Positions 1,779 to 33,071 of a stretch of DNA of 33,071 bases are shown here, piece after piece (position 1 is the stretch's first letter; each line of letters opens with the position of its first letter). The notes beneath the pieces were generated by a model. The model searched no databases. It was not told the DNA's origin and saw nothing but the letters and a program-made list of their open reading frames with translations. Origin of the DNA: Betaproteobacteria bacterium RIFCSPLOWO2_02_FULL_62_17 (lineage in GTDB: Bacteria; Pseudomonadota; Gammaproteobacteria; Burkholderiales; SG8-39). The stretch covers positions 7,385-40,455 of the forward strand of contig MEQV01000212.1 in the NCBI GenBank assembly GCA_001770355.1, given 5' to 3'. Both the position numbers and the translations under genes were made by a program.

Positions 1779-1792
1779 CAAAAGGAGGCTCC

Positions 1793-3262: not shown

Positions 3263-3264
3263 GC

Positions 3265-3459
3265 ATGGAGCGCATCTTCTGGGCCGAATGCCCACATTGC
3301 CGCGGCAGGTTCTACTGCAATCATGGCGAGATGCGCCATGCGGGCGTAGAACTGGAGTGCCCGTTCTGCGCGGCGAAGTTCCTGCCCGAGCAGGCGGCTG
3401 CCCTGGACGAGCGCACCGAGGCGCCGGCCGATGCCGGCGGCAGGGAGCGGACCAAATGA
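3265..3459 (+). CDS. Small four-Cys zinc-ribbon protein, possible UbiD-associated D-type subunit
   Basis: 64 aa: MERIFWAECPHCRGRFYCNHGEMRHAGVELECPFCAAKF..., with CPHC and CPFC pairs. The ATG lies 2 nt after the UbiD stop, and its own stop overlaps the next ATG (ATGA at 3456-3459). Position and architecture resemble the small D subunits (BsdD/VdcD/LpdD type) of phenolic acid decarboxylases. Confidence 0.55.
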   Translation: MERIFWAECPHCRGRFYCNHGEMRHAGVELECPFCAAKFLPEQAAALDERTEAPADAGGRERTK

Positions 3460-4214
3460 ACCGCGCCGACCTGCAGGCGTCGCCCTATCCCGTGGTCGAC
3501 CTGGCCCAGCACGGCGCGCCGATCTATGTGCAGCTGGCGACGCTGTTCCGGCGTTTCATCGTCACCGGCCAGTGGCCGGTTGACCAGCAGATCCCGACGC
3601 ACGAGGACATCGCGGCGCAGTTCGAGGTCAACCCGGCTACGGTGCGCAAGGCAATGGCAATGCTCGAGGACGAGGGCCTGCTCAAGCGCTTCCGCCGGCG
3701 CGGCACCTTTGTCACGGCCAAGCCCTCGGGCGGTGCAAGCTTCCTGATACCGACGCGCTGGGAAGAAATGCTGGCCGCCTTCGACGCGCTTGCGGCGAAG
3801 ACACTCGCGGCACGCAAGGTCAAGCGGATTCCCGCGCCGTTTCACGGGAACGGCTCGCAGGCGAAGGCTTACAGCTTCGCGCGGAGGTTGTATCGCCGGG
3901 GAGGGAATGCCCTGGCTCTCGAGGACTCCTACCTGGACCAGTCAGTGCGGTCTGACATTCACGCCCATCCGCTGCGGCGCCTTGCGCGCTCCAGATCAAG
4001 CTCGATCGAACGCGCCGAGGAGACGCTGCGCTTCGGCATCGCCGATCGCGACGTCGCCTCGGCGCTGGACATTGCGCTCAATGCGCCAATCGCGGTGGCG
4101 CATATTTCCGTATTCGGCCGCGCCGGGGTGCTGTTGTTCGAATCGGTGACCTGCTTCCGCGGCGACATGGCGCGCGTGTCCGAGGCGATCCGTTTTCCGG
4201 TGCGCCGCGGATGA
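3456..4214 (+). CDS. GntR-family transcriptional regulator (HutC/UTRA-like)
   Basis: Winged-HTH signature PIYVQLATLFRRFIVTGQWPVDQQIPTHEDIAAQFEVNPATVRKAMAMLEDEGLLKRFRRRGTFV, followed by an effector domain of about 170 aa. Confidence 0.82.
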   Translation: MNRADLQASPYPVVDLAQHGAPIYVQLATLFRRFIVTGQWPVDQQIPTHEDIAAQFEVNPATVRKAMAMLEDEGLLKRFRRRGTFVTAKPSGGASFLIPTRWEEMLAAFDALAAKTLAARKVKRIPAPFHGNGSQAKAYSFARRLYRRGGNALALEDSYLDQSVRSDIHAHPLRRLARSRSSSIERAEETLRFGIADRDVASALDIALNAPIAVAHISVFGRAGVLLFESVTCFRGDMARVSEAIRFPVRRG

Positions 4215-4981
4215 TGCCGGCAGGCGCCACGGCGCGAGCCAAGACGGCAAATCGCGGGCGGGCGGGGCTGAGCAATGCAACCCCCATTTACGCGCAGCTC
4301 ATCATGCATTTCCGGCACCGCATTCAGACCGGGGTCTGGCGGCTCGGACAGACCATCCCCGCCCTCAACGATCTCGCCGCGGAAAACGGCGTGACGCGCG
4401 CCACGGTACGCCAGGCAGTCGGATTTCTGCACCGCGAGGGCTTGTTGTGCAGCCGGCGCGGGCGCGGCACCGAGGTGATCGGCGTGCCCAGGACCAACCT
4501 GTGGCAACAACTGCCGGACTCGTGGGAGGAACTGGTGCGCTCAGCCGACAGCATCGAGGGCGACATGCTGGAGCTGGCACGCCCGATGCGCCTGCCCGAG
4601 GCGCCGCAGACGGAAAAAGGCATCCTCGCGCCGGGCTACCATGTGGTGCGCAGGTTGCTCAAACGCGACGGCATTCCGTATCTCGTGGGAACATCCTATA
4701 TTGATCGGCGCATCATCGCGGAAGTGGGTGAGGCGGCCTTGCAGCGGGGCTCGGTGTACCGTGCCATGGAGGCGTCGCGGAAATTCCGGCCGGCCCGGGG
4801 CGACCAGCTATTTACTTTGGGCATGGCCGACGCCGAGCTCGCTTTTCTGCTGGAGATTCCGCTCAACGCCGCGGTGGTACAGGTGCTGCGCTGGGTGTTC
4901 GACGCGGGGGGCATTTTGATTTATCAGTCGGAGGGGCAGTTTCGAAGCGACTTTGTGCAGGCGAGGCGCCGGTTGATCTGA
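4211..4981 (+). CDS. GntR-family transcriptional regulator (HutC/UTRA-like), paralog of the preceding gene
   Basis: PIYAQLIMHFRHRIQTGVWRLGQTIPALNDLAAENGVTRATVRQAVGFLHREGLLCSRRGRGTEV. Start overlaps the upstream stop (ATGA at 4211-4214). Confidence 0.82.
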   Translation: MMPAGATARAKTANRGRAGLSNATPIYAQLIMHFRHRIQTGVWRLGQTIPALNDLAAENGVTRATVRQAVGFLHREGLLCSRRGRGTEVIGVPRTNLWQQLPDSWEELVRSADSIEGDMLELARPMRLPEAPQTEKGILAPGYHVVRRLLKRDGIPYLVGTSYIDRRIIAEVGEAALQRGSVYRAMEASRKFRPARGDQLFTLGMADAELAFLLEIPLNAAVVQVLRWVFDAGGILIYQSEGQFRSDFVQARRRLI

Positions 4982-11059: not shown

Positions 11060-11464
11060 CTAAGGCACGATATCGAAGGGTCGTCCACGGGCTCGGTAGA
11101 CGGTGAAATCCTGCCGGTCTATCGTGACGATGCGCAAAATTCCCGTCAACTCCGCCGCCCAGACCAAGGATGCATCGGCGAGATCGATCGGGCGATCCGC
11201 GTACTGCTCCATCAACGCAATGATTCGAGTTATGCCGGGAGTAATATCGAGTACCTCCAGCCGCCCCCGTTCAATAAGCCGCATGACCGCGATTTCATGC
11301 CGGCGTTCGACCAAATGCACGGCCTCGGTCAGCGCGGGCCAAGTCGTTATTGCTTGTCCAAAAAATTCGTTGAAAAAACCCAGCAATGCCGCGTGTTCGC
11401 TATCACTTTTATTGAAATAAGCGATTAACGCGCCAGCATCAACGAGGACGCTGGTGCTTGCCAC
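11060..11464 (-). CDS. vapC: PIN-domain toxin (VapC-like), type II toxin-antitoxin
   Basis: 134 aa with acidic PIN positions in VLVDAGALIAY, TEAVHL, IDLADASLV and TIDRQDF. GTG start. Confidence 0.78.
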   Translation of the reverse strand: MASTSVLVDAGALIAYFNKSDSEHAALLGFFNEFFGQAITTWPALTEAVHLVERRHEIAVMRLIERGRLEVLDITPGITRIIALMEQYADRPIDLADASLVWAAELTGILRIVTIDRQDFTVYRARGRPFDIVP

Positions 11465-11663
11465 GAAGCAGCGCCTTTAAATACTTCTTGCGGTTGGTGG
11501 CCAGGTCTGGCGGTCCGCTGATGCATCCGACCAAGCGAAGCTTGCTTGCTTCCTCGCCAAAACTGGTCTTGAATGCGGCGCCCTCGGGCAATTTTCTCTT
11601 GGCGGTGACGGCAGTCATAGTGTTGACCCGGGTAAAGTTGTAGGAGGACGCAGGCAAATTCAT
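11439..11663 (-). CDS. Putative antitoxin, assigned by position upstream of and overlapping vapC
   Basis: Small ORF (74 aa, or 60 aa from the ATG at 11618) immediately upstream of the PIN gene and overlapping it by 26 nt. I recognise no family and see no clear RBS for either start. Confidence 0.45.
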   Translation of the reverse strand: MNLPASSYNFTRVNTMTAVTAKRKLPEGAAFKTSFGEEASKLRLVGCISGPPDLATNRKKYLKALLRGKHQRPR

Positions 11664-11761
11664 TTTATCATCGTAAGGAAAGTCCCGGCGGAACTCACTC
11701 GGGGGAACTCACCATGCCTGATCGTCGGTGGCGAATTCATAGTAAGACAGGAACTGAATGC

Positions 11762-11984
11762 TGCTGCGCGACCGGAATTGACCACCGTGCGCGAATTCCA
11801 CTGACCACCTATTTTCAACTAATTTTTTAGTGTAACTGTTGTTTGCACGGTCTAGATTGACCAGACTGCGCGTTTGGAATGACCAGGGCGAAGCATCTTC
11901 AAGCGTTTGGTTAAACTGGGAAACTGGCTGAACATGGCTGGTCAGCGCAATTCGCGCACGGTGGTCAATTCGGATTGCGCAGCA
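11762..11984. repeat. MITE-like element: 48-bp imperfect terminal inverted repeats around a 127-bp AT-rich core
   Basis: The left arm (11762-11809) matches the reverse complement of the right arm (11937-11984) at 42 of 48 positions by hand alignment, with a perfect 23-bp core GAATTGACCACCGTGCGCGAATT. A third partial copy of the arm motif (ATTGACCAGACTGCGCG) lies at 11856-11872. Confidence 0.6.
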
Positions 11985-12048
11985 ACAGTTGCGGTAACGG
12001 CGGAATTATCGCCAACTCGCAGCGCAGCAGACGTGACAACCGGCTCCA

Positions 12049-13020
12049 TCATTCAACCAGCGGCACTTTGGCGTCGCGGATGATTTTTGCGAAAACGTCG
12101 ATATCCGAGCGGTATTTCGCGCCGAATTCCTCCGGCGTGCCGCCCACCGGTTCATAGCCCCAGCCGGGCCATTTTTCCATCACATCCGGCAGGCGGATGG
12201 CCTTGATGAACTCGCCGCGGACCTGGGCGACGATATCGCGGGGCAGGTTGCCGGGTCCAAAGATGCCGATCCATCCGGCAATGTCGAATTCGCGCATGCC
12301 CGACTCCACCAGGGTTGGCACCTCCGGCAAGGCCGCGCCGCGTTTGGGTCCGGTGACGCCCAGCGCGCGCAACTTGCCCGAGCGCACGTGCTGGAGCGCC
12401 GCGGACAGCGGCAGAAATGCGAGCTGCACTTCGTCGGTCAGCAGCGCCGGGGTCAGCGGCGCATCGCCCTTGTAGGGAATATGCACGATGCGCGTGCCGG
12501 CGACGCTGTTGAACAGTTCCGCGGTGAGATGCGGTGGCGCGCCCAGGCCGGTGGAACCGAAGTTGAGCTTGCCCGGCTGTGCCTTCGCCATGGCGATGAT
12601 TTCCTTGACGCTGCCCGGCAGGCGCGGATGACCTACCAGCACCAGGTAGGATGAGGTCAACTGGACAATCGGCGTGAAATCCTTGATCGCATCGAACGGC
12701 AGTTTGCGGTACAGGCTGGCGCTGATCGACTGCCCTTGGATGTTGAGCAGCAGCGAGTAACCATCCGGGGCGGATTTCGCGACGGCGTCGGCGCCGATGT
12801 TGCCGCCGGCGCCGGCGCGGTTCTCCACCACCACCTGCTGTTTCCAGCTTTCGGTCACTTTTTGCGCCAGGGTTCGCGCCACCAGATCGGTCGCGCCGCC
12901 CGGCGGAAACGGGACCACCAGCCGCACCGGCTTTACCGGGTAGCTTTGCGCCTGGGCAAGCGCGGCGGCAAGGAAACACAGCGCTGCAAAGCTGCGGGAA
13001 ACAACGGCGAGGGTGGACAT
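12049..13020 (-). CDS. Bug/TctC-family tripartite tricarboxylate transporter substrate-binding protein
   Basis: A signal peptide, then AQSYPVKPVRLVVPFPPGGATDLVAR, the canonical Bug N-terminal motif. ATG at 13020 is preferred over the longer ORF. Confidence 0.85.
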   Translation of the reverse strand: MSTLAVVSRSFAALCFLAAALAQAQSYPVKPVRLVVPFPPGGATDLVARTLAQKVTESWKQQVVVENRAGAGGNIGADAVAKSAPDGYSLLLNIQGQSISASLYRKLPFDAIKDFTPIVQLTSSYLVLVGHPRLPGSVKEIIAMAKAQPGKLNFGSTGLGAPPHLTAELFNSVAGTRIVHIPYKGDAPLTPALLTDEVQLAFLPLSAALQHVRSGKLRALGVTGPKRGAALPEVPTLVESGMREFDIAGWIGIFGPGNLPRDIVAQVRGEFIKAIRLPDVMEKWPGWGYEPVGGTPEEFGAKYRSDIDVFAKIIRDAKVPLVE

Positions 13021-13039
13021 GTGATCACTCCTAAAAAAA

Positions 13040-14008
13040 TTATTCGGGTTTGACGCCCAGCCCGGCAAACACTTTCTGCCAGGTATCGTCGCGATCCTTC
13101 AGGTGCTGGCGCATCGACTCGGGCGTTCCCGCGTCATCGACGGTGAAGCCCATCTGCAGCAAGGCCTGATGGTAGCTCTTGTCGGCGATGATCTTGCTCA
13201 TTGCCGCGTGCGCCGTGCGGATCACCGCCTCTGGCGTGCCTTTGGGCGCGGCGAGCAGGCCGGTGCCGCTCAGGCGAAAGCCCGGAAAGGTTTCCGAGAT
13301 ATTGGGCACGTCCGGCCACAGAGGGAAGCGCTTGGAGCCGTCCACCGCCAGCACGCGCAGCTTGCCGGCTTTCATGAGCGCATCCACCGTCGGCGGCGAG
13401 GAGATGATCATGTTGATGCGTCCCTCGAGCACATCCTGGAACTGTTGCGCCGGCGACTTGTAGGCGACCGCCAGCATCTGGGTCCCCGCAAGCTGGTTGA
13501 GCCAGCGGCCGAAAAGAATGACGAAATTGACCGAGGTGGTGCCGTAGCTCAATTTGCCCGGGTCTTTTTTCGCCAGCGCGAAAAGCTCGGGCAGGGTCTT
13601 TGCCGGCACGCTCGGGTGCACCACCACCGAGAGCGAGCCTTCCTTGTAGATCATCGAGATGAGATCGAAATCCCTCTGCGGGTCGTAGCCCAGATCCTTG
13701 ACGGTATAGGGGTTGGTGACCAGCGTGTCCACGCCGCAGAAGAGCAGCGTGTAGCCGTCTGCCGGCGCCCTGGCTACGGTGCGCGGCGCGATGATGCCTC
13801 CCGCGCCGGTGATGTTCTCGGGAACGAACGGCTGCCCGAGGTCCTTGGAGAGGCGGTCCGCGACAATCCGGCCGATCCGGTCGGGACTGGTGCCTGAGCC
13901 CGTGGAGATGACAAATCGCACCGGTTTCGCCGGCCAGGATTGCGCGGCGACCAGGCCGGAGAACGCCAGCATGCCGGCGCAGCATAGGAAGTAAAGGATT
14001 CTGTGCAT
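13040..14008 (-). CDS. Bug/TctC-family substrate-binding protein (divergent subclass)
   Basis: A signal peptide, then AQSWPAKPVRFVISTGSGTSPDRIGRIVADRL. ATG at 14008. Close paralog of the next gene. Confidence 0.82.
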   Translation of the reverse strand: MHRILYFLCCAGMLAFSGLVAAQSWPAKPVRFVISTGSGTSPDRIGRIVADRLSKDLGQPFVPENITGAGGIIAPRTVARAPADGYTLLFCGVDTLVTNPYTVKDLGYDPQRDFDLISMIYKEGSLSVVVHPSVPAKTLPELFALAKKDPGKLSYGTTSVNFVILFGRWLNQLAGTQMLAVAYKSPAQQFQDVLEGRINMIISSPPTVDALMKAGKLRVLAVDGSKRFPLWPDVPNISETFPGFRLSGTGLLAAPKGTPEAVIRTAHAAMSKIIADKSYHQALLQMGFTVDDAGTPESMRQHLKDRDDTWQKVFAGLGVKPE

Positions 14009-14046
14009 TTTGTTATCCCCCGGGGTTGGTCCGCGCATGGTGCCGA

Positions 14047-15012
14047 TTATTCGGGCTTGATGGCCAGGCCGTCAAACACCTGCTTCCAGTAATCACGCCG
14101 TTCGCGGACCCGTTTTTGAATCGACTCCGGTGTGCCGGCGCCGTCGATGGTGAATCCCATGGTGAGCAGCGCATCCTGATACGTCTTGTCGTTGACGATT
14201 TTTTCCATGCCGCGTTGCGCGGCGCGGATAACCTCCTGGGGCGTGCCTCTGGGGGCGACCATCACCCCCATGCCGCTCAGCCTGAACCCCGGAAACGAGT
14301 CGGAGATATTGGGCACTTCGGGCCAGGCCGGGAAACGCCTGGCGCCGTCGACGGCAAGCACGCGCAGCTTGCCTGCTTTCATATGCGGTTCCAGCGTCGG
14401 CGGGGATGAAATCACCATCTGAATGCGGCCGGACAGAACATCCTGAAACTGCTGGGCCGGGCTTTTGTAGGCGACCGCGAGCATCTCGGTGCTGGCCAGC
14501 TTGTTTATCCAACGGCCAAACAGGATGATGAAGTTCACCGAGGTGGTGCCGTAACTCAGCTTGCCCGGTTCTTTTTTCGCCAGCGCCAGGAACTCGGGGA
14601 ATGTCTTGGCGGGAACGGACGGGTGCACGGCGATGCCCAGTGAGCCTTCCTCGTAGATCATCGAAATCGGCTCGAAATCGCGGTCCGCGTCATAGCCCGG
14701 ATCTTTTATCGTGAAAAGATCGGTCACCAGGGCGCTCACTCCGGCAAAGAACAGCGTGTATCCGTCCGCGGGGGCCCGCGCCGCTGTGCGCGTGGCGATA
14801 ATGCCGCCGCCGCCGGTGATGTTGTCGACGACGATGCTTTGCCCCAGGTCGCGGGAAAGCCGGTCGGCGACGATGCGTCCGATGCGGTCAGGGCTGGTTC
14901 CGCCGCCGGTGGAGATGATAAAGCGTACCGGCTTGTTCGGCCAGTTCTGAGCCGCCGCTTCGGCGCTGGCAAAGGCCAACGCGGCGCATAGCAGGCTTGC
15001 GATGATTTTCAT
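14047..15012 (-). CDS. Bug/TctC-family substrate-binding protein (divergent subclass)
   Basis: A signal peptide, then AQNWPNKPVRFIISTGGGTSPDRIGRIVADRL. ATG at 15012 is preceded by a GGGGGGAGG RBS. Collinear with the 13040-14008 product over its full length. Confidence 0.82.
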   Translation of the reverse strand: MKIIASLLCAALAFASAEAAAQNWPNKPVRFIISTGGGTSPDRIGRIVADRLSRDLGQSIVVDNITGGGGIIATRTAARAPADGYTLFFAGVSALVTDLFTIKDPGYDADRDFEPISMIYEEGSLGIAVHPSVPAKTFPEFLALAKKEPGKLSYGTTSVNFIILFGRWINKLASTEMLAVAYKSPAQQFQDVLSGRIQMVISSPPTLEPHMKAGKLRVLAVDGARRFPAWPEVPNISDSFPGFRLSGMGVMVAPRGTPQEVIRAAQRGMEKIVNDKTYQDALLTMGFTIDGAGTPESIQKRVRERRDYWKQVFDGLAIKPE

Positions 15013-15213
15013 GATGTTGCCTCCCCCCAGGGCGTGGATGACGTGCTGCGGCCCCAGTGTAGCCGCTGGTTGTCGGGTACCGCAACGATTTCCCATTGAC
15101 GGGATTTCGTGCCATTCCTGAAACTTTTGCGCACGGATGTTACCCTTGCGCGGCCCGCAAATCTGCCCGCGGCATTTCCGTCAACCCAAGACATCCGATC
15201 CAAGGAAAACTCC

Positions 15214-15828
15214 ATGGCGAGGCAGCGCGCACTTCCCGTCGATGTTCATCCCGAGACGCTGTCGCGACTTCCGCCCCTGCGGCGCGAGGACCTGGACGAA
15301 GCCCGGCAAAAAGCCTATGACGCGCTTAGCCGGCCGCCGCAAGGCGGACTGAATCTGGCCGGCATCAAAGGCCCGGGCGGGGTGCTTTTGCGCATGCCAA
15401 AACTGGGCAAATTCTTCGACGAGGTAAATCGCATTCTGCGTTCGGAGTTGGGCCTTGATCCGCGCCTGGTCGAAGTGGCCATCCTGGCCACGGCGCGCGA
15501 AATGTCCAGCCAGTTCGAATGGGCCATGCATGAGCCCGTGGCGATCGAAAAGGGTGTCGCGGCGAAAACCGTCGACATGATCAGGCGCCGCAAGCCGCTC
15601 TCAGGCGTGCCGGAAAAGGAAGCGGCTCTGGTTGAACTGGTGCGCGAAGCCGTGGGCGCGAAAAACGTCACTTCGGCGACTTACGCGCGTGCGCTCGCCT
15701 TGTTTGGCGAAGAAGGGCTGCTTCACTATGCGGCGTTGATCGGCAATTACGCGCAAACGGCGATCATCCTGGGCATAGTAGGCCAGCAACTGCACGATCA
15801 CCCGAGGCCAGCACCGCGCAGTCGGTGA
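15214..15828 (+). CDS. Carboxymuconolactone decarboxylase (CMD/AhpD-like) family protein with a replaced C-terminus
   Basis: RLVEVAILATAREMSSQFEWAMHEPVAIEKGV matches the CMD-family E(F/Y)EW..H motif. It is a paralog of the 32444-33071 gene up to QQLHD, after which the tail HPRPAPRSR* is read from the antisense of a hyuA fragment. Confidence 0.72.
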   Translation: MARQRALPVDVHPETLSRLPPLRREDLDEARQKAYDALSRPPQGGLNLAGIKGPGGVLLRMPKLGKFFDEVNRILRSELGLDPRLVEVAILATAREMSSQFEWAMHEPVAIEKGVAAKTVDMIRRRKPLSGVPEKEAALVELVREAVGAKNVTSATYARALALFGEEGLLHYAALIGNYAQTAIILGIVGQQLHDHPRPAPRSR

Positions 15829-15955: not shown

Positions 15956-17131
15956 TCATACCACCCCTTTCTTCCGCCATTCCGCGATCGTATCCTCCAC
16001 ATAGCCCATGCTTTTCAGAATCTCCTCGCTGTGCTCTCCCGCGGTGGGCGGCGGCAGGCTCATGCGAGGCGGTGTCGCGCTCATCCGGATTGCGCTGCCC
16101 ACTAGACTCACATCGCCCATCCGGGGATGCACCATCTCGACCAGCATCCCCAAGTGCTTGACCTGCGGGTGTTCGAACACCTCGCTCATATTCAGCAGCG
16201 GTGCCGCCGGTACGTCGTGCTCATCCAGCAGTTTCAACCACCGTTCGCGCGTTCCGGAGGCGAATTTCTCTATCAAGATCGCCTGCAGCGCCGGGTAGTT
16301 CCTGACGCGCGCTTCACGGTTGACGAAGCGCGGATCGTCCTTGAGTTCGGGCCGAGCGATGGCATCGGCGAGGCCGTGCCAGAACTTCTGCGGCGAGGAC
16401 AGGTGAATGATGAAGGGCCGCCGGTCCGAGTCGAGGAACGCATACACCTGAGCCATGTGCAAGCGCGTCTCGCGCGTGGGTACGGGTCCGCCGGCAAGAT
16501 ATCGAACGGCATTTTCCGCGCAGAATGCGAGCGTGGCCTGGAGCAGCGAGGTTTCCACTTTCTGGCCCACGCCGGCGCGTTCCCGTGCCAGGAGCGCACC
16601 CTGCACCGCATAACAGGCATACATTCCGGTCAGCAGATCCGACAGGGAAGCGCCCATTCCCGTGGGCGCATCGACGTCGGTGAGCACGCTCAGCAAGCCT
16701 CCCAGAGCCTGCCCGATGGTGTCGTAGCCAGGCCGGTCTCGGTACGGGCCGTCGGACCCGTAGCCGGAAATCGAACAGTAAACGATACGTGGGTTACCGG
16801 CCCTCACCGCCTCGTAGCCGACGCCGATTCGATCAAGGGCACCCGGTCTCATGTTCTCGATGATCACATCGACGTCTCGCGCCAGCCGCCGGAGGACTTC
16901 CTTCCCCTCGGCCGACTGGATGTTGAGCGAGAGGCTGCGCTTGTTGCGGTTCATGCTGCAAAAGGTGGGGCTGTAGGGCGTGTCGCCCCAGCCGCGGAAG
17001 GCGTCCCCCTGCCCCGGCATCTCGATCTTGATGACCTCGGCGCCGAGATCGGCCAGCAGCATCGAGGCGAACGGGCCGGTGATATAGCTGGCAATCTCCA
17101 GGATCCTGATGCCTTCCAATGCTCCCGCCAT
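15956..17131 (-). CDS. Family III CoA-transferase (CaiB/BaiF/Frc type)
   Basis: GIRILEIASYITGPFASMLLADLGAEVIKIE is the family N-terminal signature. 391 aa. RBS AAAGGAAG. Confidence 0.88.
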   Translation of the reverse strand: MAGALEGIRILEIASYITGPFASMLLADLGAEVIKIEMPGQGDAFRGWGDTPYSPTFCSMNRNKRSLSLNIQSAEGKEVLRRLARDVDVIIENMRPGALDRIGVGYEAVRAGNPRIVYCSISGYGSDGPYRDRPGYDTIGQALGGLLSVLTDVDAPTGMGASLSDLLTGMYACYAVQGALLARERAGVGQKVETSLLQATLAFCAENAVRYLAGGPVPTRETRLHMAQVYAFLDSDRRPFIIHLSSPQKFWHGLADAIARPELKDDPRFVNREARVRNYPALQAILIEKFASGTRERWLKLLDEHDVPAAPLLNMSEVFEHPQVKHLGMLVEMVHPRMGDVSLVGSAIRMSATPPRMSLPPPTAGEHSEEILKSMGYVEDTIAEWRKKGVV

Positions 17132-17173: not shown

Positions 17174-17581
17174 TCACGCGCGCGGCCGGAACTTGGGCAG
17201 TGAGATCTCTTCGTTGATCTTCTCGAACAGCACTTCCACCGCCATGTCGCACCGAATCCGTGCAGTTTCCACGCCGACAATGTTGCTCAGCAGACGGGGG
17301 CCTTCCTCGAGTTCCACGCAGGCAACCGCGTAGGGCAGGTCATTCGCAAAGGCAGGGTGGTAGGCGCGGTGGAATACAACGAAGGAGTGAACCCTGCCCC
17401 GACCCGACACGGGCACCCACTCGGAAGACGTGGAACTGCACTCCGGGCACAGCACGCCGGGCGGGAATCGGTATGAACTACAGTCCAGGCAGCGTTGCAG
17501 TCGCAGTTCCCCGTTGCGGGTGGCCTCCCAGAAGGGTTTGGAATCTTCCGATGGCGTCGGAATCGGCTTGGATGGCGTCAT
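17174..17581 (-). CDS. DUF35 Zn-ribbon/OB-fold protein
   Basis: SKPFWEATRNGELRLQRCLDCSSYRFPPGVLCPECSS (CxxC...CxxC rubredoxin-like), followed by an OB-fold-length C-terminus. The start lies 4 nt downstream of the upstream thiolase-like gene's stop. Confidence 0.85.
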   Translation of the reverse strand: MTPSKPIPTPSEDSKPFWEATRNGELRLQRCLDCSSYRFPPGVLCPECSSTSSEWVPVSGRGRVHSFVVFHRAYHPAFANDLPYAVACVELEEGPRLLSNIVGVETARIRCDMAVEVLFEKINEEISLPKFRPRA

Positions 17582-17585
17582 GGCT

Positions 17586-18725
17586 TCACTTCCTGAGGAT
17601 CAAGGTCGAGTGGCAGACCGCATTGCCGCCGTTGCCGCTCACTAGCGCCGTCTGCGCATCGGGCACCTGCCGGGGACCGCACTGACCCCGCAGCTGGCGC
17701 GTCGCCTCGACGATCTGCAGCATGCCTTCGACGTATCCTTCGGAAAGCATGCCCCCGGACGTATTGGTGGGCAGAGCGCCGCCCAGCTCCAGGCGCCCGC
17801 CCTGCACGAACGGGCCGCCCTCGCCTTTCTTGCAGAAACCGTAATCCTCCAAAGAGGCGAGCACGATGTAGGAATAGCAGTCGTAAATCTGTGCCGTATC
17901 AATGTCCGCGGGGGTCACGCCAGCCATGCGGAATGCCTTGGCGCCGGATTCCCGGGCGGCCAGCTCGGTCATGTGATTCCCATAGTTCCAGCCGCGCGAA
18001 TTGTTGGCGCGCCCCATCCCCATGACGAAGACCGGCGGCTGGCGCAGGTCCCTCGCGCGCTCGGCCGAGGTGACGATCACCGCGGCGGCGCCGTCGCTCA
18101 CCAGGCAGCAGTCGAGCAGGTGGAACGGCCATACGACCCACCGGGAACGATGGTAATCATCGAGTGTCATCGGTTCGCGCATCTGGGCCTCGGGATTGAG
18201 GCATGCGTGCTTGCGGAAAGCTACCGCGATGGCGCCCAACTGATCGTGAGTAGTGCCGTACTCGTGCATGTGCCGGGTCGCTCCCAGCGCATGTTGCGCG
18301 GTGGCCCCGAACATGCCGAACTCCGGTCCGAACTCCTGCACCGGCTCGTGGCCGTCACCGCTCTTGCGGGTCAGGCCCTTGTCACCATGCAGGCACAGCA
18401 CGGTCGAGCAGAATCCGGCCTCGATGGCGGCGGCCGCGAGCTGCACCATGAGGCAGGAGGTCGCACCGCCGGAGGACACCGACAGTCCGAAATCCGTGTC
18501 GATGCCCAGCCGCTCGGCCAAGCGCTGATGATGCACGCGCACGGCTCCCAGCAGGTGGCTGTGCGTGATGATACCGTCGATGTCCTGCTTCTTCAATCCC
18601 GCATCGTCGAGGGCGCTCTTCACCGCAGCGAGCTGCAAACCGTAGTCGCTCATTTCGGGTACGCGCCCGATGCGGCTCTGTCCCACGCCGACGATGGCGT
18701 ACTTGTCTCTCAGTGCCGCGTTCAT
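17586..18725 (-). CDS. Thiolase-fold protein (SCP-x/Ltp type), probably a non-thiolytic aldolase-like member
   Basis: KYAIVGVGQSRIG start and NTSGGMLSEG near the C-terminus place it in the thiolase superfamily. ATG at 18725 follows an AAGGAGAGG RBS, so the longer ORF to 19151 is rejected. See findings for the missing Cys and His residues. Confidence 0.8.
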   Translation of the reverse strand: MNAALRDKYAIVGVGQSRIGRVPEMSDYGLQLAAVKSALDDAGLKKQDIDGIITHSHLLGAVRVHHQRLAERLGIDTDFGLSVSSGGATSCLMVQLAAAAIEAGFCSTVLCLHGDKGLTRKSGDGHEPVQEFGPEFGMFGATAQHALGATRHMHEYGTTHDQLGAIAVAFRKHACLNPEAQMREPMTLDDYHRSRWVVWPFHLLDCCLVSDGAAAVIVTSAERARDLRQPPVFVMGMGRANNSRGWNYGNHMTELAARESGAKAFRMAGVTPADIDTAQIYDCYSYIVLASLEDYGFCKKGEGGPFVQGGRLELGGALPTNTSGGMLSEGYVEGMLQIVEATRQLRGQCGPRQVPDAQTALVSGNGGNAVCHSTLILRK

Positions 18726-18750
18726 GATCCTCTCCTTGGCGCTCAAGCTT

Positions 18751-18766
18751 AGCAATATTCTTTGCT
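18751..18766. promoter_or_regulatory. Palindrome AGCAA-N6-TTGCT in the divergent intergenic region
   Basis: AGCAATATTCTTTGCT sits in the AT-richest part of the 120-bp gap between the divergently transcribed thiolase-like and carboxyltransferase genes. A further TTGCT lies downstream. Confidence 0.25.
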
Positions 18767-18845
18767 TGTTGGTAGACTCGTTGCTTTCGTGAAGGTGTGT
18801 CTTGCACCGCGTCGGACGACGCGGCCTGCGGATCGGAGATCGTCC

Positions 18846-20300
18846 ATGGACACGGTGAAGTTTGTCGACACGACTCTGCGCGACGGGCAGATGAGTCTTT
18901 GGGCGACAAACATGACCACCGCCATGATTCTGCCGGTGGCCGAAAGCATCGACCAGGCGGGGTTCGAGGCGGCCGAGATCATTGCGGCTGCCTTTTTCAA
19001 GAAGTGCGTGCGCGAGCTGCACGAGGATCCCTGGGAGCGCATACGCCAGGTACGGGCGCGCATGCCCAACACCCCGCTGCGGGCCATTCGGGGCCGGTAC
19101 ATGAGCGCCTTCCAGATCACGCCCGCTTCGATTACCGAACTCTGGCTGCAAAGACTGGCCGCCAACGGCATCCGCGAGATCCGGATATCCGATTCGTCCA
19201 ACACTCCGGCAGTGTGGCGCGATCAGGTGTCCAGCGCCCGCGCCGCCGGAATGTCAACCATCGTCAACCTGATTTTCTCGATTTCTCCCAAGCATACGGA
19301 CGCCTACTATGCCGAGAAGGCTGCCGCGGCCGCGCGGCTCGGTACCGACCGGATGTGCCTGAAGGACCCCGGCGGGCTGCTGACTCCCGAGCGCACGCGC
19401 ACATTGGTGCCGGCAATACTTCGAGAGGCGGGTGAGGTGCCGATCGAGTTCCATACTCACTGCAATTTGGGTATGGGCACGCCGTGCTGCGTCGAAGCCA
19501 TAAAGCTCGGAATCAGGTCGGTCAATACCGCCATCCCGCCGCTCTCGGACGGATCCTCGAACCCTTCGGTGTTCGACGTTGTTCGCAACGCGCGCGTCCT
19601 GGGCTACTCCTGCGACCTGGAGGAGGAGCCGCTCGCGGCGGTCGAGCAGCATTTCTCCGCCATCGCCCGGCGCCAGCGTCTGCCCGTGGGCGCGCCGGTG
19701 CGCTACGACTGCTCCAACTATCTCCACCAGGTGCCCGGTGGCATGATCTCCAATCTGCGCCACCAGCTGGCCAACCTGGGATTGGATGGGAAATTGCAGG
19801 AGGTACTCGATGAGACGACCCGAGTGCGCGCGGACCTGGGTTATCCCATCATGGTGACGCCCTATTCCCAGTTCGTGGGCGCTCAGGCGGTGATGAACGT
19901 CGTTCTTGGAGAACGCTACAAGAGCGTATCCGACGAAGTCATTCAATACACCCTGGGTTTCTGGGGCGAGGAAGAAAGTACATCGATCGATCCGGATATA
20001 AAGGGGCGCATCCTCGGCAATCCGCGTGCGAAGGAACTGGCCGCCTGGCGGCCTCCTCAACCGACTTTGAAAGAACTGCGCCAACAATACGGGGGGGTGT
20101 CCGATGACGATCTGCTGCTGCACTATTTTGCCGGAGGGAGCGACGTGGCGGCCATGCGCGCCGCCGGCCCCCGCCAGGAATCCGGCGACGGTGTGCCCAC
20201 CCTCGCGCGGCTGATCGAGGCGTTGAACGTGAGCGGCCAATGCCGGCACATTCAGGTGCGCAAGAGCGGCATGTCGTTCACGCTGCAGCGTCGCCGGTGA
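18846..20300 (+). CDS. Carboxyltransferase, oxaloacetate decarboxylase alpha / pyruvate carboxylase B / transcarboxylase 5S-like, without a biotinyl domain
   Basis: VKFVDTTLRDGQMSLWATNM is the HMGL-like/PYC_OADA N-terminal signature. At 484 aa it ends ...VRKSGMSFTLQRRR with no (A/V)MKM biotin attachment motif. RBS GGAGA lies 6 nt upstream. Confidence 0.78.
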   Translation: MDTVKFVDTTLRDGQMSLWATNMTTAMILPVAESIDQAGFEAAEIIAAAFFKKCVRELHEDPWERIRQVRARMPNTPLRAIRGRYMSAFQITPASITELWLQRLAANGIREIRISDSSNTPAVWRDQVSSARAAGMSTIVNLIFSISPKHTDAYYAEKAAAAARLGTDRMCLKDPGGLLTPERTRTLVPAILREAGEVPIEFHTHCNLGMGTPCCVEAIKLGIRSVNTAIPPLSDGSSNPSVFDVVRNARVLGYSCDLEEEPLAAVEQHFSAIARRQRLPVGAPVRYDCSNYLHQVPGGMISNLRHQLANLGLDGKLQEVLDETTRVRADLGYPIMVTPYSQFVGAQAVMNVVLGERYKSVSDEVIQYTLGFWGEEESTSIDPDIKGRILGNPRAKELAAWRPPQPTLKELRQQYGGVSDDDLLLHYFAGGSDVAAMRAAGPRQESGDGVPTLARLIEALNVSGQCRHIQVRKSGMSFTLQRRR

Positions 20301-25448: not shown

Positions 25449-27566
25449 ATGAGTTATTTCATCGGCATCGACATCGGCGGCACGTTCACGGATTGCGTCG
25501 TACTGGATTCCGACGGTCGGATCGCCGCGATCGCGAAGTCGCCAACGCGGCGCGCCAAACCCGATGAAGGGGTGATCAACTCGGTTGCCGCGGCGGCGAG
25601 GCGCATGGGAATCGAGCCCGCTGCGCTACTGGGAGACTGCCGGTTTTTTGTCCACGGCTGCACCGTGGCGACCAACGCCATTGTGGAAAGGAAAGGCGTG
25701 CGCACGGCCCTTGTCACCACGCGTGGCCACGAGGACGCGATCTTCATCGGCAAGGCATCGCAGAAAGTCGCCGGGCGCACCGAGCGCGAAATGAATCATC
25801 AGTCGCACCTGGACAAGGCCGATCCGCCCATCGTCGCGCCGCGGGACGTGCACGGCATATCCGAGCGCATCGATTCGCGCGGCGATGTCGTGGTCGAATT
25901 GAATGAAGACGATGTCTCGCGCGCGGTCGAGGCGTTGCGTCGCGACGGCATCGAGTCGGTGGCGATTTCTTTTCTCTGGTCGTTTCAGAACGGCGATCAT
26001 GAGCGGCGCGTACGCGAACGCGTGGAGCGGGAACTTCCCGGCGTCTATGTATGCGCGTCGCACGTGCTCGCCCCGCTGATCGGCGAGTACGAGCGCACCG
26101 CGACCACCGTGGCCAATGCCTACGTCGGGCCCAGGCTGATCGGCTACCTTGATCGTCTGGGCGACCGGTTGGCCGCAGGCGGTTATCGCTATCCCCTGCT
26201 GCTTGCCCATTGCATGGGCGGGCTCACGACAATGGAGGAAATCCGCCTGCGGCCTTTGCTGACGCTGGATTCGGGCCCCGTCAGCGGCGTGCTGGGGGCG
26301 CGCTACTTCGGCGCCGTCTATGGCGAACCCGACATCATCTGCGCCGACATGGGCGGCACCACCTTCGATGTGGCCTTGATCGAAGACGGCCAGTACATTC
26401 TTGATGAAGAGCCGGTCATTGACCGCTACACCTGCCTGATCCCCAAGGTGGCGGTGGAGTCTGTCGGCGCCGGCGGGGGGAGCATTGTATGGTGCGACGA
26501 CAACAAGCTGCTTCGCGTCGGGCCGCACAGCGCCGGGGCGGAACCCGGCCCCGCCTGCTATGGCTCAGGCGGGGCCGCGCCCACGGTTACCGATGTCAAT
26601 CTGGTGCTTGGCTATCTCAGTCCGGAGGCATTTCTCGGCGGTGAAATGCGCCTGGACCGGGCCGCCGCCGAACGCGCGGTCCAAGCCGTGGGCGCGAAGC
26701 TCGGCCTGGATTGCCTGCAGGCGGCGGCGGGCGCGTTCAGGATAGTCAACGCCAATATGGCCGACCTGATCCGGCGCTCCAGCATCGATCGCGGACGCGA
26801 CGCGCGCGATTTCGTTTTGTTCGCCTATGGCGGGGCCGGCGCGCTGCACATTGCGTATTTGGCGCGCGATCTGGGCGTCAGTAAGGTTTATGTGCCTTCG
26901 TTTGCCACGGTATTCTCGGCGCTGGGCATGCTTACCGGGGGAATCGTGCACGCGTCGGAACGATCCAGCCTCGCCGCGTTTCCGATGGAGCCCGGGCGAT
27001 GGCGCGAGTTGGGCGGCATGTTCCAAGAACTCGAACAAAATCTGGGCAAGCTGTTCGAGCGCGAGGGAATCGAACCCGATGCGCGCCGGCACGCCCGCTT
27101 CGCGCATGTGAAATACCGTTTGCAGCCGCGCGCGCTGGCCGTGCCGGTGACCGCTGACTTCGCGCAAGCGGATTCGCAGGACCGCTTGCTTGCCGCGTTT
27201 CAGAAACAGTACGCGGCTCTCTACGGCGAGAATTCGGGCTATGGCGCCGCGAGCATCGAGATTGTCAAGTGCCGGGTGGAAGCGTCGGCGGACATGGTGC
27301 TGCCGCGGCTCGCCGCGGCCCCGGCCATTGGGCCCCGCGATGCGTCGCCGGCGAAAAAGGGCGAGCGCGACATTTATCTTGCCGAGCTGGGCGCCAGGGT
27401 GCCGGCGTCCATTTACGATGGCGAGCGTCTTGCGCCGGGAATGACGCTTGGCGGGCCGGCTGTGATCGAAAGAATGGGCGACACCATCCTCCTGCCCGGA
27501 TTTGCCGGGGGCGTGGTGGATGGTTTCGGCAATATCGTCATCGAACTGCAAGCGGTGGCAAAATGA
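25449..27566 (+). CDS. Hydantoinase/oxoprolinase A-type subunit (HyuA / acetone carboxylase beta-like)
   Basis: MSYFIGIDIGGTFTDCVVL N-terminus, a second ATPase-fold motif ICADMGGTTFDV, 705 aa. Confidence 0.88.
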   Translation: MSYFIGIDIGGTFTDCVVLDSDGRIAAIAKSPTRRAKPDEGVINSVAAAARRMGIEPAALLGDCRFFVHGCTVATNAIVERKGVRTALVTTRGHEDAIFIGKASQKVAGRTEREMNHQSHLDKADPPIVAPRDVHGISERIDSRGDVVVELNEDDVSRAVEALRRDGIESVAISFLWSFQNGDHERRVRERVERELPGVYVCASHVLAPLIGEYERTATTVANAYVGPRLIGYLDRLGDRLAAGGYRYPLLLAHCMGGLTTMEEIRLRPLLTLDSGPVSGVLGARYFGAVYGEPDIICADMGGTTFDVALIEDGQYILDEEPVIDRYTCLIPKVAVESVGAGGGSIVWCDDNKLLRVGPHSAGAEPGPACYGSGGAAPTVTDVNLVLGYLSPEAFLGGEMRLDRAAAERAVQAVGAKLGLDCLQAAAGAFRIVNANMADLIRRSSIDRGRDARDFVLFAYGGAGALHIAYLARDLGVSKVYVPSFATVFSALGMLTGGIVHASERSSLAAFPMEPGRWRELGGMFQELEQNLGKLFEREGIEPDARRHARFAHVKYRLQPRALAVPVTADFAQADSQDRLLAAFQKQYAALYGENSGYGAASIEIVKCRVEASADMVLPRLAAAPAIGPRDASPAKKGERDIYLAELGARVPASIYDGERLAPGMTLGGPAVIERMGDTILLPGFAGGVVDGFGNIVIELQAVAK

Positions 27567-29836
27567 ACGCAGGCAAGCGCATTTCAGCCATTCCTTCGAC
27601 CTCACGGCGGCTTGATCCCATCACGCTGGAGGTGCTGCGCAACCGCCTTGCCATGATCAACGACGAGCAGGGACGCGTGGCCTCGCAGCTGTCGGGTTCG
27701 CCGGTGGTGTACGAGGCCAAGGATTTCAACAGCGCGCTGCTGACGCCCGAGGGGGAGGGCTTGTTCGTCGGCATTTACATGACGCGCCTTTCGCTGTGCC
27801 TCAACGGCTTTGCCAAGACCGTGATCGCAAGCTTCAAGGACAACGTCGGCTACGCCGAGGGCGATGCCTTCGTCACCAACGACCCCTGGGCGGGCGCGGC
27901 GCATATGAACGATTTCCTGATGATCGCGCCGATATTTCACCAGGGCACGCTGGTGTGCTGGACCGGCCTCGCGATGCACGAAGTCGATGTCGGCGGCCCC
28001 AATCCAGGCAGTTTCACCGTGGGCACGCCGGACGTATTCGGCGAAGCGCCGCTGATTCCGCCGGTCAAGATGGTGGAGCGCGGAACGATTAGAAACGACA
28101 TCGAGGCGCTGCTGATCCGCAATTCGCGCACCCCGAGGCTCAACGGCCTGAACATGCGCGCGCGGATCGCAGCGATCAACCGAACTCGCCAGCGGATCGG
28201 GGAAGTGATCGCCGAGTACGGCCTTGAAACCGTGATGGAGGCGCAGCGCGGCATTCTCGATCTGGCGCACTCGTCGTTTGCGCGACGCTTGCGCTCGCTG
28301 CCCGATGGAACCTGGAAAACGGAGGGTTTTCTCGATCACGACGGCAATCAGAATCGCCTGTATCGGATTTGCCTTGCGATGACCAAGCGCGCGGAGCGCC
28401 TGTGCTTCGATTTTACCGGCACCGACGCGCAGGCGCGCGGGGCGATTAACTGCACCAAGACCGGCCTGGAGAGCGGCATACTGTCGGCGGTCTTGCCCAT
28501 GCTGTGCTACGACATTCCGTGGACCACCGGCGGCATCATGCCGATGATCGATATCATTTCCGAAGAGGGGACGATCAATAACGCGCGCCATCCGGCGGCG
28601 GTCAGCATGGCCACCGTCTCCGGCATTTTTGCCACTTCCCATGTGACCTCCGGAACCATCGCAAAAATGCTTGCGTGCTCTTGCCTGCAGGGCGAGATTC
28701 AGGCGAACTGGGCGCCCGCGTGGCAGGGTGTCACCATAGCGGGCCACTTCGCGGGTGGGAGGCCGTTTACCGCGGTGCTGCTCGATGAGACCGGCGGAAG
28801 CGGTGCGCGCGCCTGGAAGGACGGCATCGATGCCGGCGGATTGCCCGGTTCGCCAGCCATGGCAATCGCCAATGTCGAGGTGTACGAGAAAGAGTATCCG
28901 ATACTCTATGTGTATCGCCGTCAGTCGCCCGACACCGGCGGGCAGGGCATGACTCGCGGCGGGGTGGGCACCGAGGGCATGATGGTTGCGCATCGTAACG
29001 AAGGTCCGATCGACCTCACGCGTCTGGCGCATGGCGTGAGCCAGCCGGAAGCGCAGGGCCTCTATGGCGGCTATCCTTCGAGCGTCCAGGTCACGCTGCT
29101 GTTGCGCGAGTCGGATCACAAGCGCCAATTCGCCGATCGCCGTATACCGGTCGGCGTCGAAGCGCTGCAGGCGAGGAGCATCGAACCCATGCAGGCCAAG
29201 CAACGCATCCTGCTCGATCCCGAGGACGCGATCGTCATCGTGTGCGCGGGCGGGGGCGGCTATGGCGACCCGCTGCGGCGCGAGCCTGAGGCGGTTAGGG
29301 CCGATCTCGGTGCTGGATTGGTGAGCGCAAAAGTCGCGCGCGACGTCTATGGCGTGGCGATGCGCGAAGCCGATGGCGGGGGATCGACTTGCGGAGCCGG
29401 TCGCGGCGAATCGACTCGAATTGACACAGAACGGACCGCGCAATTGCGCAAAGCCATCCGCGAGCGGCGTCTGTCAGAAGGGAGGCGATCGCCTGCTCGC
29501 CCCCGGCGCGAGGTCGCGAACCAGGACAACTCCGCGGTGCTGGCGCAGAGCATAGGCGCGGCCCTGGACAGGGTCGAGACGAATGGCCGGGCGCAATACC
29601 TGTGCCGGCAATGCCGCCGCCCGATCTGTGGCGCGAACGAAGATCCCAAGTCCGGCGCCCTCGCGCGCTTGACCAGGATGGAATCGCTCAGTCCATGGAA
29701 TAAATACGGCCTGGTCGATGAGATCGTGGTGCGCGAATTCTGTTGTCCCGGCTGTGCCCAACTCATCGCGGTTGAAGTGCGGCGCAAGGACGATCCGGTG
29801 CTCTACGACACCGGTCTGGGTTGTCCGGCATCCTGA
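27563..29836 (+). CDS. Hydantoinase B/oxoprolinase-type subunit fused to a C-terminal acetone-carboxylase-gamma-like zinc domain
   Basis: DPITLEVLRNRLAMINDEQG is the HyuB start. ATG overlaps the HyuA stop (ATGA at 27563-27566). After the normal HyuB end (...VSAKVARDVYGVAM...TAQLRKAIRERR) come about 120 extra residues containing YLCRQCRRPIC and VVREFCCPGCAQLIAVEV. Confidence 0.82.
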   Translation: MNAGKRISAIPSTSRRLDPITLEVLRNRLAMINDEQGRVASQLSGSPVVYEAKDFNSALLTPEGEGLFVGIYMTRLSLCLNGFAKTVIASFKDNVGYAEGDAFVTNDPWAGAAHMNDFLMIAPIFHQGTLVCWTGLAMHEVDVGGPNPGSFTVGTPDVFGEAPLIPPVKMVERGTIRNDIEALLIRNSRTPRLNGLNMRARIAAINRTRQRIGEVIAEYGLETVMEAQRGILDLAHSSFARRLRSLPDGTWKTEGFLDHDGNQNRLYRICLAMTKRAERLCFDFTGTDAQARGAINCTKTGLESGILSAVLPMLCYDIPWTTGGIMPMIDIISEEGTINNARHPAAVSMATVSGIFATSHVTSGTIAKMLACSCLQGEIQANWAPAWQGVTIAGHFAGGRPFTAVLLDETGGSGARAWKDGIDAGGLPGSPAMAIANVEVYEKEYPILYVYRRQSPDTGGQGMTRGGVGTEGMMVAHRNEGPIDLTRLAHGVSQPEAQGLYGGYPSSVQVTLLLRESDHKRQFADRRIPVGVEALQARSIEPMQAKQRILLDPEDAIVIVCAGGGGYGDPLRREPEAVRADLGAGLVSAKVARDVYGVAMREADGGGSTCGAGRGESTRIDTERTAQLRKAIRERRLSEGRRSPARPRREVANQDNSAVLAQSIGAALDRVETNGRAQYLCRQCRRPICGANEDPKSGALARLTRMESLSPWNKYGLVDEIVVREFCCPGCAQLIAVEVRRKDDPVLYDTGLGCPAS

Positions 29837-32443: not shown

Positions 32444-33071
32444 TCATGCGCCGCCATACGTCACGCCCGGCATTGGCTCTCCTATCGTTTCCGGCAGCAG
32501 CGGCGCCTGACCGTCGTGTAGCTGCTGGTCGAACACGCACAGCGTGATCGCGGTCGTGGCGTAGCTCGCGATCAGGGCGACGATGTTCAGAAGGCCGCGC
32601 TCGCCGAAAACCTTCAGGACCCGTGCATGGGTCCGCGAGCAGACCTTGTGGGCTCCGAGCGACCCCCTGGCGAGCTCGATTACGGCGGCTTCGTGCTCGG
32701 GAATGCCCGCGAGCGCTTTGCCATGCTTGATGAGATCGATTGTCCGCTGCGGGATGCCCTTGCGCCGCGCCACCGGTTCATGCATGGTCCACTCGAACTG
32801 GCTGTCCATTTGCCTCGCCGTGGCGAGTATCGCGATCTTGACCAGCAGCGGATCGATGCCCGCCTCGCTGCGCAGGTACCGATTGATTGCGCCCAAGTGC
32901 TTGCGCAGTTCCGGCATGCGCAAGAAAACTCCGCCCGGACCCTGAAGGCCGGCGAGATCCGGGCCGCCATCGCGGGGCTTGGCCAGCACGTCGTACGGGG
33001 CCTTTTCCAGCTCGCCCAGTTCTTCGCGGCGAATCGGCGACGGTCGCGAACGGCTCTCCGGACTGACGTCG
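32444..33071 (-). CDS. CMD/AhpD-like family protein (5'-partial, runs off the window)
   Basis: KIAILATARQMDSQFEWTMHEPVARRKGI motif. The reading frame stays open upstream of the GTG at 32989 (DVSPESRSRPSPIRREELGELEKAPYDVLAK) and aligns with residues 10-41 of the 15214 paralog, so the true start is outside the window. Confidence 0.72.
   Translation of the reverse strand, partial: DVSPESRSRPSPIRREELGELEKAPYDVLAKPRDGGPDLAGLQGPGGVFLRMPELRKHLGAINRYLRSEAGIDPLLVKIAILATARQMDSQFEWTMHEPVARRKGIPQRTIDLIKHGKALAGIPEHEAAVIELARGSLGAHKVCSRTHARVLKVFGERGLLNIVALIASYATTAITLCVFDQQLHDGQAPLLPETIGEPMPGVTYGGA

Follow-up and report, generated by a model that had tools for sequence, protein, structure and literature searches.

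What does a protein with the fold of a thiolase do when the residues of the thiolase active site are missing? The question is raised by a gene that similarity-based annotation calls a thiolase, at 17586..18725 (minus strand, ATG 18725 to stop 17586) in a stretch of 33,071 nucleotides from contig MEQV01000212.1 of Betaproteobacteria bacterium RIFCSPLOWO2_02_FULL_62_17, the whole of which is referred to as the window. Its product of 379 amino acids (P0001) was described in an earlier note, made from the sequence alone, as lacking the nucleophilic Cys and the catalytic His of thiolases and carrying tyrosines in their place, in the manner of the steroid side-chain aldolase Ltp2. Judged by its residues, the protein is not a thiolase, both the nucleophilic Cys and the His of the GHP block being missing, and thiolysis was excluded because no nucleophile is present. 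By analogy with characterised enzymes, it is probably a retro-aldolase of the Ltp2 (Tyr/Tyr) type that depends on a DUF35 protein and acts on a non-steroid beta-hydroxyacyl-coenzyme A (CoA), and it is called the aldolase below.

The residues that matter are Gly86-Gly87, His145, Tyr281-Asp-Cys283-Tyr284, Tyr331 and Gly366-Gly367. Reference sequences were rebuilt from printed alignments, and the rebuild was validated by the residues named in the paper on the aldolase Sal (PMC12329534), each of which carried the correct letter at chain number minus 24. A large MAFFT alignment shifted the archaeal thiolase by ~3 residues at the nucleophile block, and HMMER pairwise alignments together with the equivalence of Gly89 in CtSal, the Sal of Comamonas testosteroni, were therefore used. 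Gly87 (codons of Gly86-Gly87 at 18465..18470, minus strand) occupied the thiolase nucleophile position, within the LSVSSGGATSC that had been read at residues 81-91. When the Pyrococcus thiolase 7yvy was aligned, its nucleophilic Cys (in KIEAACASGG) fell on a Gly, as the earlier hand alignment had it, namely on Gly87, and CtSal Gly89, which is called the equivalent of the thiolase nucleophile (PMC12329534), aligned to the same residue. The CtSal oxyanion-hole residue Gly391 aligned to Gly367.

Tyr281-Asp282-Cys283-Tyr284 (YDCY; 17874..17885, minus strand, with the Tyr281 codon at 17883-17885) stands in place of the HDCF/NEAF loop of thiolases, and Tyr331 (17733..17735, minus strand) aligned to the catalytic His of the GHP block (SEGY--VEG against ARGHPVG). 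The surrounding letters, IYDCYS at residues 280-285 and SEGYVEG at residues 328-334, and the spacing of 50 residues between the two tyrosines were as previously claimed. Both tyrosines aligned, gap-free nearby, to those of TcLtp2, the Ltp2 of Thermomonospora curvata, Tyr281 to Tyr294 and Tyr331 to Tyr344. These two numbers are correct as given earlier, and in TcLtp2 Tyr294 acts as base and Tyr344 as acid (PMC12329534). An alignment with Cys as nucleophile and His as base had been named as the finding that would overturn the claim; since there was no Cys at the one position and no His at the other, the claim stands, and the interpretation of the pattern as an Ltp2-type signature is supported, by the aligned residues as well as by their conservation, the DUF35 partner, the fold and the clade.

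Close relatives were defined from a large protein search as a clade of 47 sequences with 72-90% identity, below which identity dropped across a gap to about 60%. Invariant in 47/47 were G86, G87, H145, D205, C206, C207, Y281, D282, E329, Y331 and E333. The third thiolase feature, the HDCF loop, is YDCY here, and its Cys is present, yet replaced in 18/47 close relatives (position 283: C29/S16/A1/P1); Tyr284 varied as well (Y30/F16/S1). Cys91, the sole cysteine near the nucleophile position, was replaced in 29/47 (G23/C18/P3/A2/N1). The G86/G87/Y281/Y331 pattern exceeds chance in these sequences, and the Tyr/Tyr pair was favoured because Cys283 is replaced in 18/47 whereas Tyr281 and Tyr331 are invariant.

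A sister clade of 67 sequences (55-62% identity; P0049-P0121), found in loci L018-L060 mainly of metagenome-assembled genomes (MAGs) of Alphaproteobacteria, Chloroflexota and Actinomycetes, carried His at position 331 in 67/67 and mostly read YDCF. It is a Cys-less thiolase fold with a third make-up (Tyr, Cys, His), unlike both Ltp2 and Sal. Six of its members read NDPF and are hence without even the first Tyr.

For the phylogeny, 1.84 billion cluster representatives were scanned with HMMER, giving 1,402 matches at E 1e-30 or better, and the best matches were aligned with four structural references (251 sequences). The aligned nucleophile position in the 250 relatives was Gly, occasionally another non-Cys residue. 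The first Tyr was present in nearly all sequences of the alignment, and at the second position (331), 125 carried His, 99 Tyr and 27 some other residue. A tree of 99 rows was calculated with IQ-TREE under LG+C20+F+G4 with posterior mean site frequencies (PMSF), with supports given as pairs in the style 100/99. The clade of the aldolase was supported at 100/99, as was its union with the His-type sister clade. All 43 second-Tyr sequences sampled, including TcLtp2 and the aldolase, fell into a 72-row clade (ultrafast bootstrap, UFboot, 99; Shimodaira-Hasegawa-like approximate likelihood ratio test, SH-aLRT, 95), with CtSal and the structure 4u4e outside it. The phylogenetic check proposed with the first description thus placed the aldolase with TcLtp2 (99/95) and apart from CtSal.

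By Fitch parsimony, the ancestor of the 72-row clade had Tyr and deeper nodes had His, and a FastTree of all 251 rows agreed (194-tip clade, support 0.98); fewer than about ten changes at the second position could not be reconciled with the well-supported branches. On these trees, the second Tyr may have arisen once, in an ancestor common to steroid Ltp2 and the aldolase, and later been replaced many times, a single-origin reading that is provisional because the sample was centred on the aldolase and the reconstruction used parsimony. The aldolase is no Ltp2 ortholog by its sequence: it falls under the NCBIfam cut-off, belongs to a different subclade and has the His-type sister clade. In NCBIfam, no curated thiolase or 'lipid-transfer protein' model was matched above its cut-off, PRK06158 with 355 bits (cut-off 421) and PRK07855 / NF005892 with 303 bits (cut-off 469) scoring best, and in Pfam the C-terminal domain of thiolases (Thiolase_C_1, E 1e-52) was the only one detected.

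A phmmer search of all PDB chains returned 4u4e (3.7e-89), 6ok1_A (TcLtp2, 6.9e-64) and 9myr_A (CtSal, 1.6e-60), followed at lower scores by 7yvy (2.1e-42) and by BbsB and the archaeal thiolase of the 3-hydroxy-3-methylglutaryl-CoA (HMG-CoA) synthase complex (both ~1e-34). The AlphaFold2 model, built on a 38-sequence alignment, reached a mean predicted local distance difference test (pLDDT) of 86.5 and a predicted TM-score (pTM) of 0.91. In the model, helix 89-103 begins directly after Gly87, where thiolases place their nucleophile. Foldseek against the PDB ranked 4u4e first, then the Ltp2-ChsH2(DUF35) and Sal-Shy(DUF35) aldolases, and next archaeal thiolases, SCP2-thiolases, TbSLP, BbsB and PhlC, the TM-scores of all matches being ~0.8-0.87. 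In this ranking, 4u4e and the aldolase structures Ltp2 and Sal stand above the true thiolases.

The free-standing DUF35 gene that had been reported to follow immediately lies at 17174..17581 (minus strand), a 4-base gap behind the aldolase stop. It encodes a protein of 135 amino acids (P0122) with a C4 zinc ribbon (Cys31, 34, 45 and 48) and an OB fold, matching Pfam zf-ChsH2 and OB_ChsH2_C. The best PDB matches were 6ok1_B, ChsH2(DUF35) (4.5e-27), and 9myr_B, the Shy DUF35 (1.4e-24); an archaeal DUF35 (1e-11) and BbsA (2.6e-7) matched more weakly. Gene disruption in C. testosteroni has found the DUF35 domain indispensable for Ltp2 aldolase activity (PMC12502768), and the adjoining DUF35 protein is presumed to be an obligatory partner of the aldolase.

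Downstream, the third operon gene (15956..17131, minus strand) encodes a family III CoA-transferase of 391 amino acids (Pfam CoA_transf_3, E 2e-114), with succinate-hydroxymethylglutarate CoA-transferase as best PDB match (4.7e-77) and succinate-glutarate CoA-transferase as best NCBIfam model, far under cut-off. It is followed by three tandem genes for TctC/Bug periplasmic carboxylate-binding proteins (12049..15096, minus strand; individually 14047-15096, 13040-14038 and 12049-13068; Pfam TctC, E 1e-39 to 5e-65). From gene position only, the three TctC proteins may share their substrate with the aldolase.

Because the Ltp2 tyrosine pair, the zinc-ribbon helper and a CoA-transferase occur together, cleavage of a non-steroid hydroxy acid is the most likely function. 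We infer the complex, the retro-aldol reaction, its direction and the substrate class by analogy with TcLtp2, whose residue roles were taken from the Sal paper (PMC12329534). The TctC proteins would capture a carboxylic beta-hydroxy acid, and the CoA-transferase would form its CoA thioester without adenosine triphosphate (ATP), the donor plausibly being succinyl-CoA or the acyl-CoA product of the aldolase. The DUF35 protein would bind the aldolase dimer and complete the substrate cleft. Tyr281 as base would deprotonate the beta-hydroxyl, held by the backbone NH of Gly87; the C-alpha/C-beta bond would break, with the thioester enolate stabilised by the conserved oxyanion region of His145 and Gly366-Gly367; and Tyr331 would protonate C-alpha, so that a short acyl-CoA is released together with an aldehyde or ketone. 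The likeness of the CoA-transferase to dicarboxylate-specific enzymes and the TctC proteins point faintly to a polar (di)carboxylic beta-hydroxy acid as substrate, the hint being weak since TctC proteins bind many kinds of carboxylate.

As far as the window shows, the substrate is most likely not a steroid. No MaoC/crotonase (enoyl-CoA hydratase, ECH) hydratase, acyl-CoA dehydrogenase or steroid-ring enzyme, and no ChsE1E2 or ChsH1H2 (MaoC hydratase) genes, were present among the main open reading frames (ORFs) of the window, which agrees with the non-steroid-looking context noted before. A plasmid search matched short CoA-transferase fragments only.

The aldolase operon is separated by a divergent intergenic region (18726..18845), which holds the aldolase Shine-Dalgarno site, from a plus-strand operon. 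The latter starts with genes for a biotin-less OadA/5S-like carboxyltransferase, a short-chain dehydrogenase/reductase (SDR), an Asp/Glu-racemase-fold protein and a flavocytochrome-c-like flavin adenine dinucleotide (FAD) enzyme, and continues with two further TctC proteins, the hydantoinases A and B, a 3-hydroxyisobutyrate-dehydrogenase-like protein, a SnoaL protein and an epimerase-family protein. The carboxyltransferase (18846-20300, plus strand) has HMGL-like and PYC_OADA domains without a biotinyl domain, and no biotin carboxyl carrier protein (BCCP) or OadB gene was present among the window ORFs examined. The hydantoinase A and B pair lies at 25449-29836 (plus strand), and the C-terminal part of the hydantoinase B ORF as listed (27269-29836) weakly matches the gamma subunit of acetone carboxylase (E 5.8e-4). 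Two inverted ORFs of the carboxymuconolactone decarboxylase-like (CMD) family, at 15109-15828 (plus strand) and 32444-33070 (minus strand), flank both divergent operons. At 1760-4981 (plus strand), ~15 kb from the aldolase operon, a gene for a UbiD-family decarboxylase precedes two GntR/UTRA regulator genes in a row, and a gene for a PIN-domain protein, likely a VapC-type toxin, lies at 11060-11464 (minus strand), in the gap between catabolic genes and the TctC array.

Sixteen related loci with a 72-84% identical aldolase homolog were collected from metagenome contigs and GTDB species genomes. The DUF35 gene stood directly downstream of the aldolase gene in all of them (16/16), its product 53-71% identical to the DUF35 protein of the window, with the other neighbours variable; what is conserved as a unit is therefore the aldolase gene with its DUF35 gene. 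A CoA-transferase gene was adjacent or close in six (L005, L006, L007, L009, L010 and L017), all of the betaproteobacterial type and several with TctC genes, which makes it a recurrent but lineage-specific companion. Molybdopterin aldehyde-oxidase-type genes were found in L001, L005 and L007, and an amidohydrolase was common to L007 and L017. Only L009 also has hydantoinase A/B, an SDR and an epimerase-family gene; its HyuA/HyuB pair lies just upstream of the aldolase homolog, with 29-37% identity to the window pair. Across the 16 loci, no substrate or single pathway emerged from gene context, DUF35 being the only universal neighbour. In L006, the CoA-transferase downstream of the 84% identical aldolase homolog was called as three fragments (11598-12768) and the DUF35 gene was uncalled, yet detected by tblastn, so that this is either a decaying locus or a contig with indel errors. 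In the Binatia loci, a small Oxidored_molyb gene (158 amino acids) lies upstream of the aldolase-DUF35 pair, which otherwise sits in a housekeeping neighbourhood (dnaK, dnaJ, lon, purM, purE and archease); in L011-L016 and L061, the gene just downstream of DUF35 encodes a UbiD-like decarboxylase.

Several of these results weigh against an Ltp2-type aldolase coupled to a CoA-transferase. The Binatia loci (L001-3, L011-16 and L061) are without a CoA-transferase, and as their neighbours differ, the coupling is not universal and substrates may differ. Residues 326-330, the loop preceding Tyr331, are the only ones with a pLDDT <50, and because this loop is poorly modelled, the placement of Tyr331 in the active site rests on the sequence alignment. 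The full Sal motif YDCY is retained, which leaves some room for a Tyr/Cys dyad.

Such a Sal-type dyad, with Tyr281 as base, Cys283 as acid and Tyr331 merely supporting, is the best of the alternatives, though an unlikely one. As YDCY and the second Tyr of Ltp2 co-occur, both published dyads are present in one protein. The motif is literally that of CtSal, in which Tyr302 and Cys304, aligned here to Tyr281 and Cys283, are both catalytic and essential and Gln352 replaces the second Tyr (PMC12329534), and Cys283 is kept in 29/47 close relatives as well as in the aldolase itself. The remaining 18 have Ser, Ala or Pro there, with Tyr331 invariant throughout, whereas the C304S and C304A variants of CtSal lose activity (PMC12329534); with Ser or Ala tolerated there, the clade cannot depend on that Cys. 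With its Gln at the second position, CtSal also lies outside the 72-row clade.

A somewhat smaller chance was given to another reaction on a CoA thioester or to the condensing direction, such as a decarboxylation of the acyl- or malonyl-CoA type or a hydrolysis. The Cys-less relative TbSLP slowly decarboxylates malonyl-CoA (PMC12329534), and one may imagine a connection with the divergent carboxyltransferase that has no biotin domain and with the hydantoinase/acetone-carboxylase-like genes, given that the OadA/5S-like carboxyltransferase is divergently placed and HyuA/HyuB lie nearby both here and in L009. Against this, the kcat of TbSLP is 0.005 per s, its authors now suspect an aldolase, and CtSal is without such activity (PMC12329534). 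An OadA/5S-like carboxyltransferase next to the aldolase was found in none of the other related loci, and the invariant residues fit the acid/base pair of an aldolase.

It is very improbable that the protein is a catalytically inert scaffold whose partner enzyme does the chemistry. In PhlABC and in the archaeal thiolase/HMG-CoA synthase complex, DUF35 proteins do connect subunits of thiolase fold with other enzymes, but the aldolase operon is without a partner of the KAS III or HMG-CoA synthase type, and active-site residues strictly invariant in 47 relatives would be unexpected for a pseudo-enzyme. A true thiolase with Cys91, Cys206 or Cys207 as nucleophile is scarcely credible: although every member of the clade has Cys206 and Cys207 and Cys91 lies one helical turn past position 87, Cys91 is replaced in 29/47 relatives, the DCC motif also occurs in the proven aldolase TcLtp2 (HLLDCC), the nucleophile position is Gly and the activating His of the GHP block is Tyr. 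The DUF35-dependent aldolase with a Tyr281/Tyr331 pair is thus the reading retained.

The ORF at 17586-18725 is as first described, on the minus strand, an orientation that had been left unstated. A reading of 521 amino acids from a TTG (17586-19151) was rejected, as the ATG start of the 379-amino-acid product has a Shine-Dalgarno site (AAGGAGAGG, a few bases 5' of ATG 18725) and the extension overlaps the divergent gene; homologs with 72-90% identity are co-linear from residue 1, so that the longer reading is unsupported. The closest named relatives of the source, an uncultured organism from groundwater, are MAGs of Betaproteobacteria and Binatia. The window sequence was present in several groundwater, subsurface and freshwater metagenomes, and a mixed DNA/RNA search for it listed 22 runs, of which not one was RNA.

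To our knowledge, the biochemically characterised thiolase-fold aldolases (Ltp2, Sal) all cleave steroid side chains and take their DUF35 from a hydratase. The clade described here, from uncultured groundwater bacteria, has the same catalytic pair and partner, but with a free DUF35, no hydratase and a CoA-transferase. In the literature searched, no usable account of a non-steroid DUF35 aldolase (e.g. the ibuprofen ipfDE system) was found. The aldolase is, on its sequence, most likely a non-steroid, free-DUF35, CoA-transferase-coupled representative of the known Ltp2-type thiolase-fold aldolases and a good enzyme-discovery lead. If the activity is confirmed, the known substrates of Ltp2-type aldolases would no longer be steroids only, many entries that databases list as 'acetyl-CoA acetyltransferase' or 'thiolase family protein' would have to be corrected, and a new scaffold for biocatalysts that form and cleave C-C bonds would be at hand. 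A single origin of the Tyr with repeated replacement by His would be a natural experiment on an acid role moving between Tyr, Cys and His.

A wider proposal is speculative and rather doubtful as it stands: the Tyr/Tyr site, so far known in steroid Ltp2 only, may mark a large radiation of single origin, comprising DUF35-dependent beta-hydroxyacyl-CoA lyases that are mostly non-steroid, with the present clade of groundwater Betaproteobacteria and Binatia as the core of an ATP-independent 'CoA-shuttle' module. There, a small polar beta-hydroxy (di)carboxylate would be loaded by a succinate/hydroxymethylglutarate-type CoA-transferase of family III and cleaved by the aldolase to a carbonyl compound plus an acyl-CoA, which would serve again as CoA donor. 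If true, the aldolase would be a thiolase-fold functional analogue of the HMG-CoA, malyl-CoA or citramalyl-CoA lyases.

Among known systems, the steroid C3 side-chain aldolase TcLtp2-ChsH2(DUF35) of T. curvata (6ok1), with counterparts in M. tuberculosis and C. testosteroni, is the closest. Both have the thiolase fold with Gly at the nucleophile position, the two aligned tyrosines 50 apart, the HLLDCC motif and a C4 zinc-ribbon DUF35 partner, for which ChsH2(DUF35) is the best solved relative, and both belong to the 72-row clade. They differ in sequence (about 36-40% identity, with the aldolase in another subclade) and in the loop, YDCY here against YDHF in TcLtp2. The DUF35 is a separate protein of 135 amino acids here and the C-terminal domain of a MaoC hydratase there, and the surroundings are a family III CoA-transferase and TctC proteins in a window without ChsE/ChsH or steroid context.

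CtSal-CtShy(DUF35), the bile-acid C5 side-chain aldolase of C. testosteroni (9myr), has the identical YDCY, equivalent glycines (Gly89 to Gly87, Gly391 to Gly367) and the same requirement for a DUF35 partner. Unlike the aldolase, it has Gln352 at the position of Tyr331, an essential Cys where that of the clade described here is dispensable, and, in place of a free-standing C4 protein, a DUF35 whose zinc finger is of the C3H1 kind and which is joined to a MaoC hydratase. The putative thiolase 4u4e of Sphaerobacter thermophilus, from structural genomics, is the best match both in sequence (about 45% identity) and in fold and shares Gly-Gly at the nucleophile position and the YD motif, but reads YDSF, keeps His (SYTHPG) at the position of Tyr331 and falls outside the 72-row clade. 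The benzoylsuccinyl-CoA thiolase BbsAB (7pxp) and the archaeal complex of acetoacetyl-CoA thiolase with HMG-CoA synthase and DUF35 (6esq) likewise combine an SCP2-type fold with a DUF35 zinc-ribbon partner. They are much more distant (catalytic subunit E about 1e-34, DUF35 E 1e-7 to 1e-11), and their thiolases need the nucleophilic Cys and catalytic His that are both missing from the aldolase.

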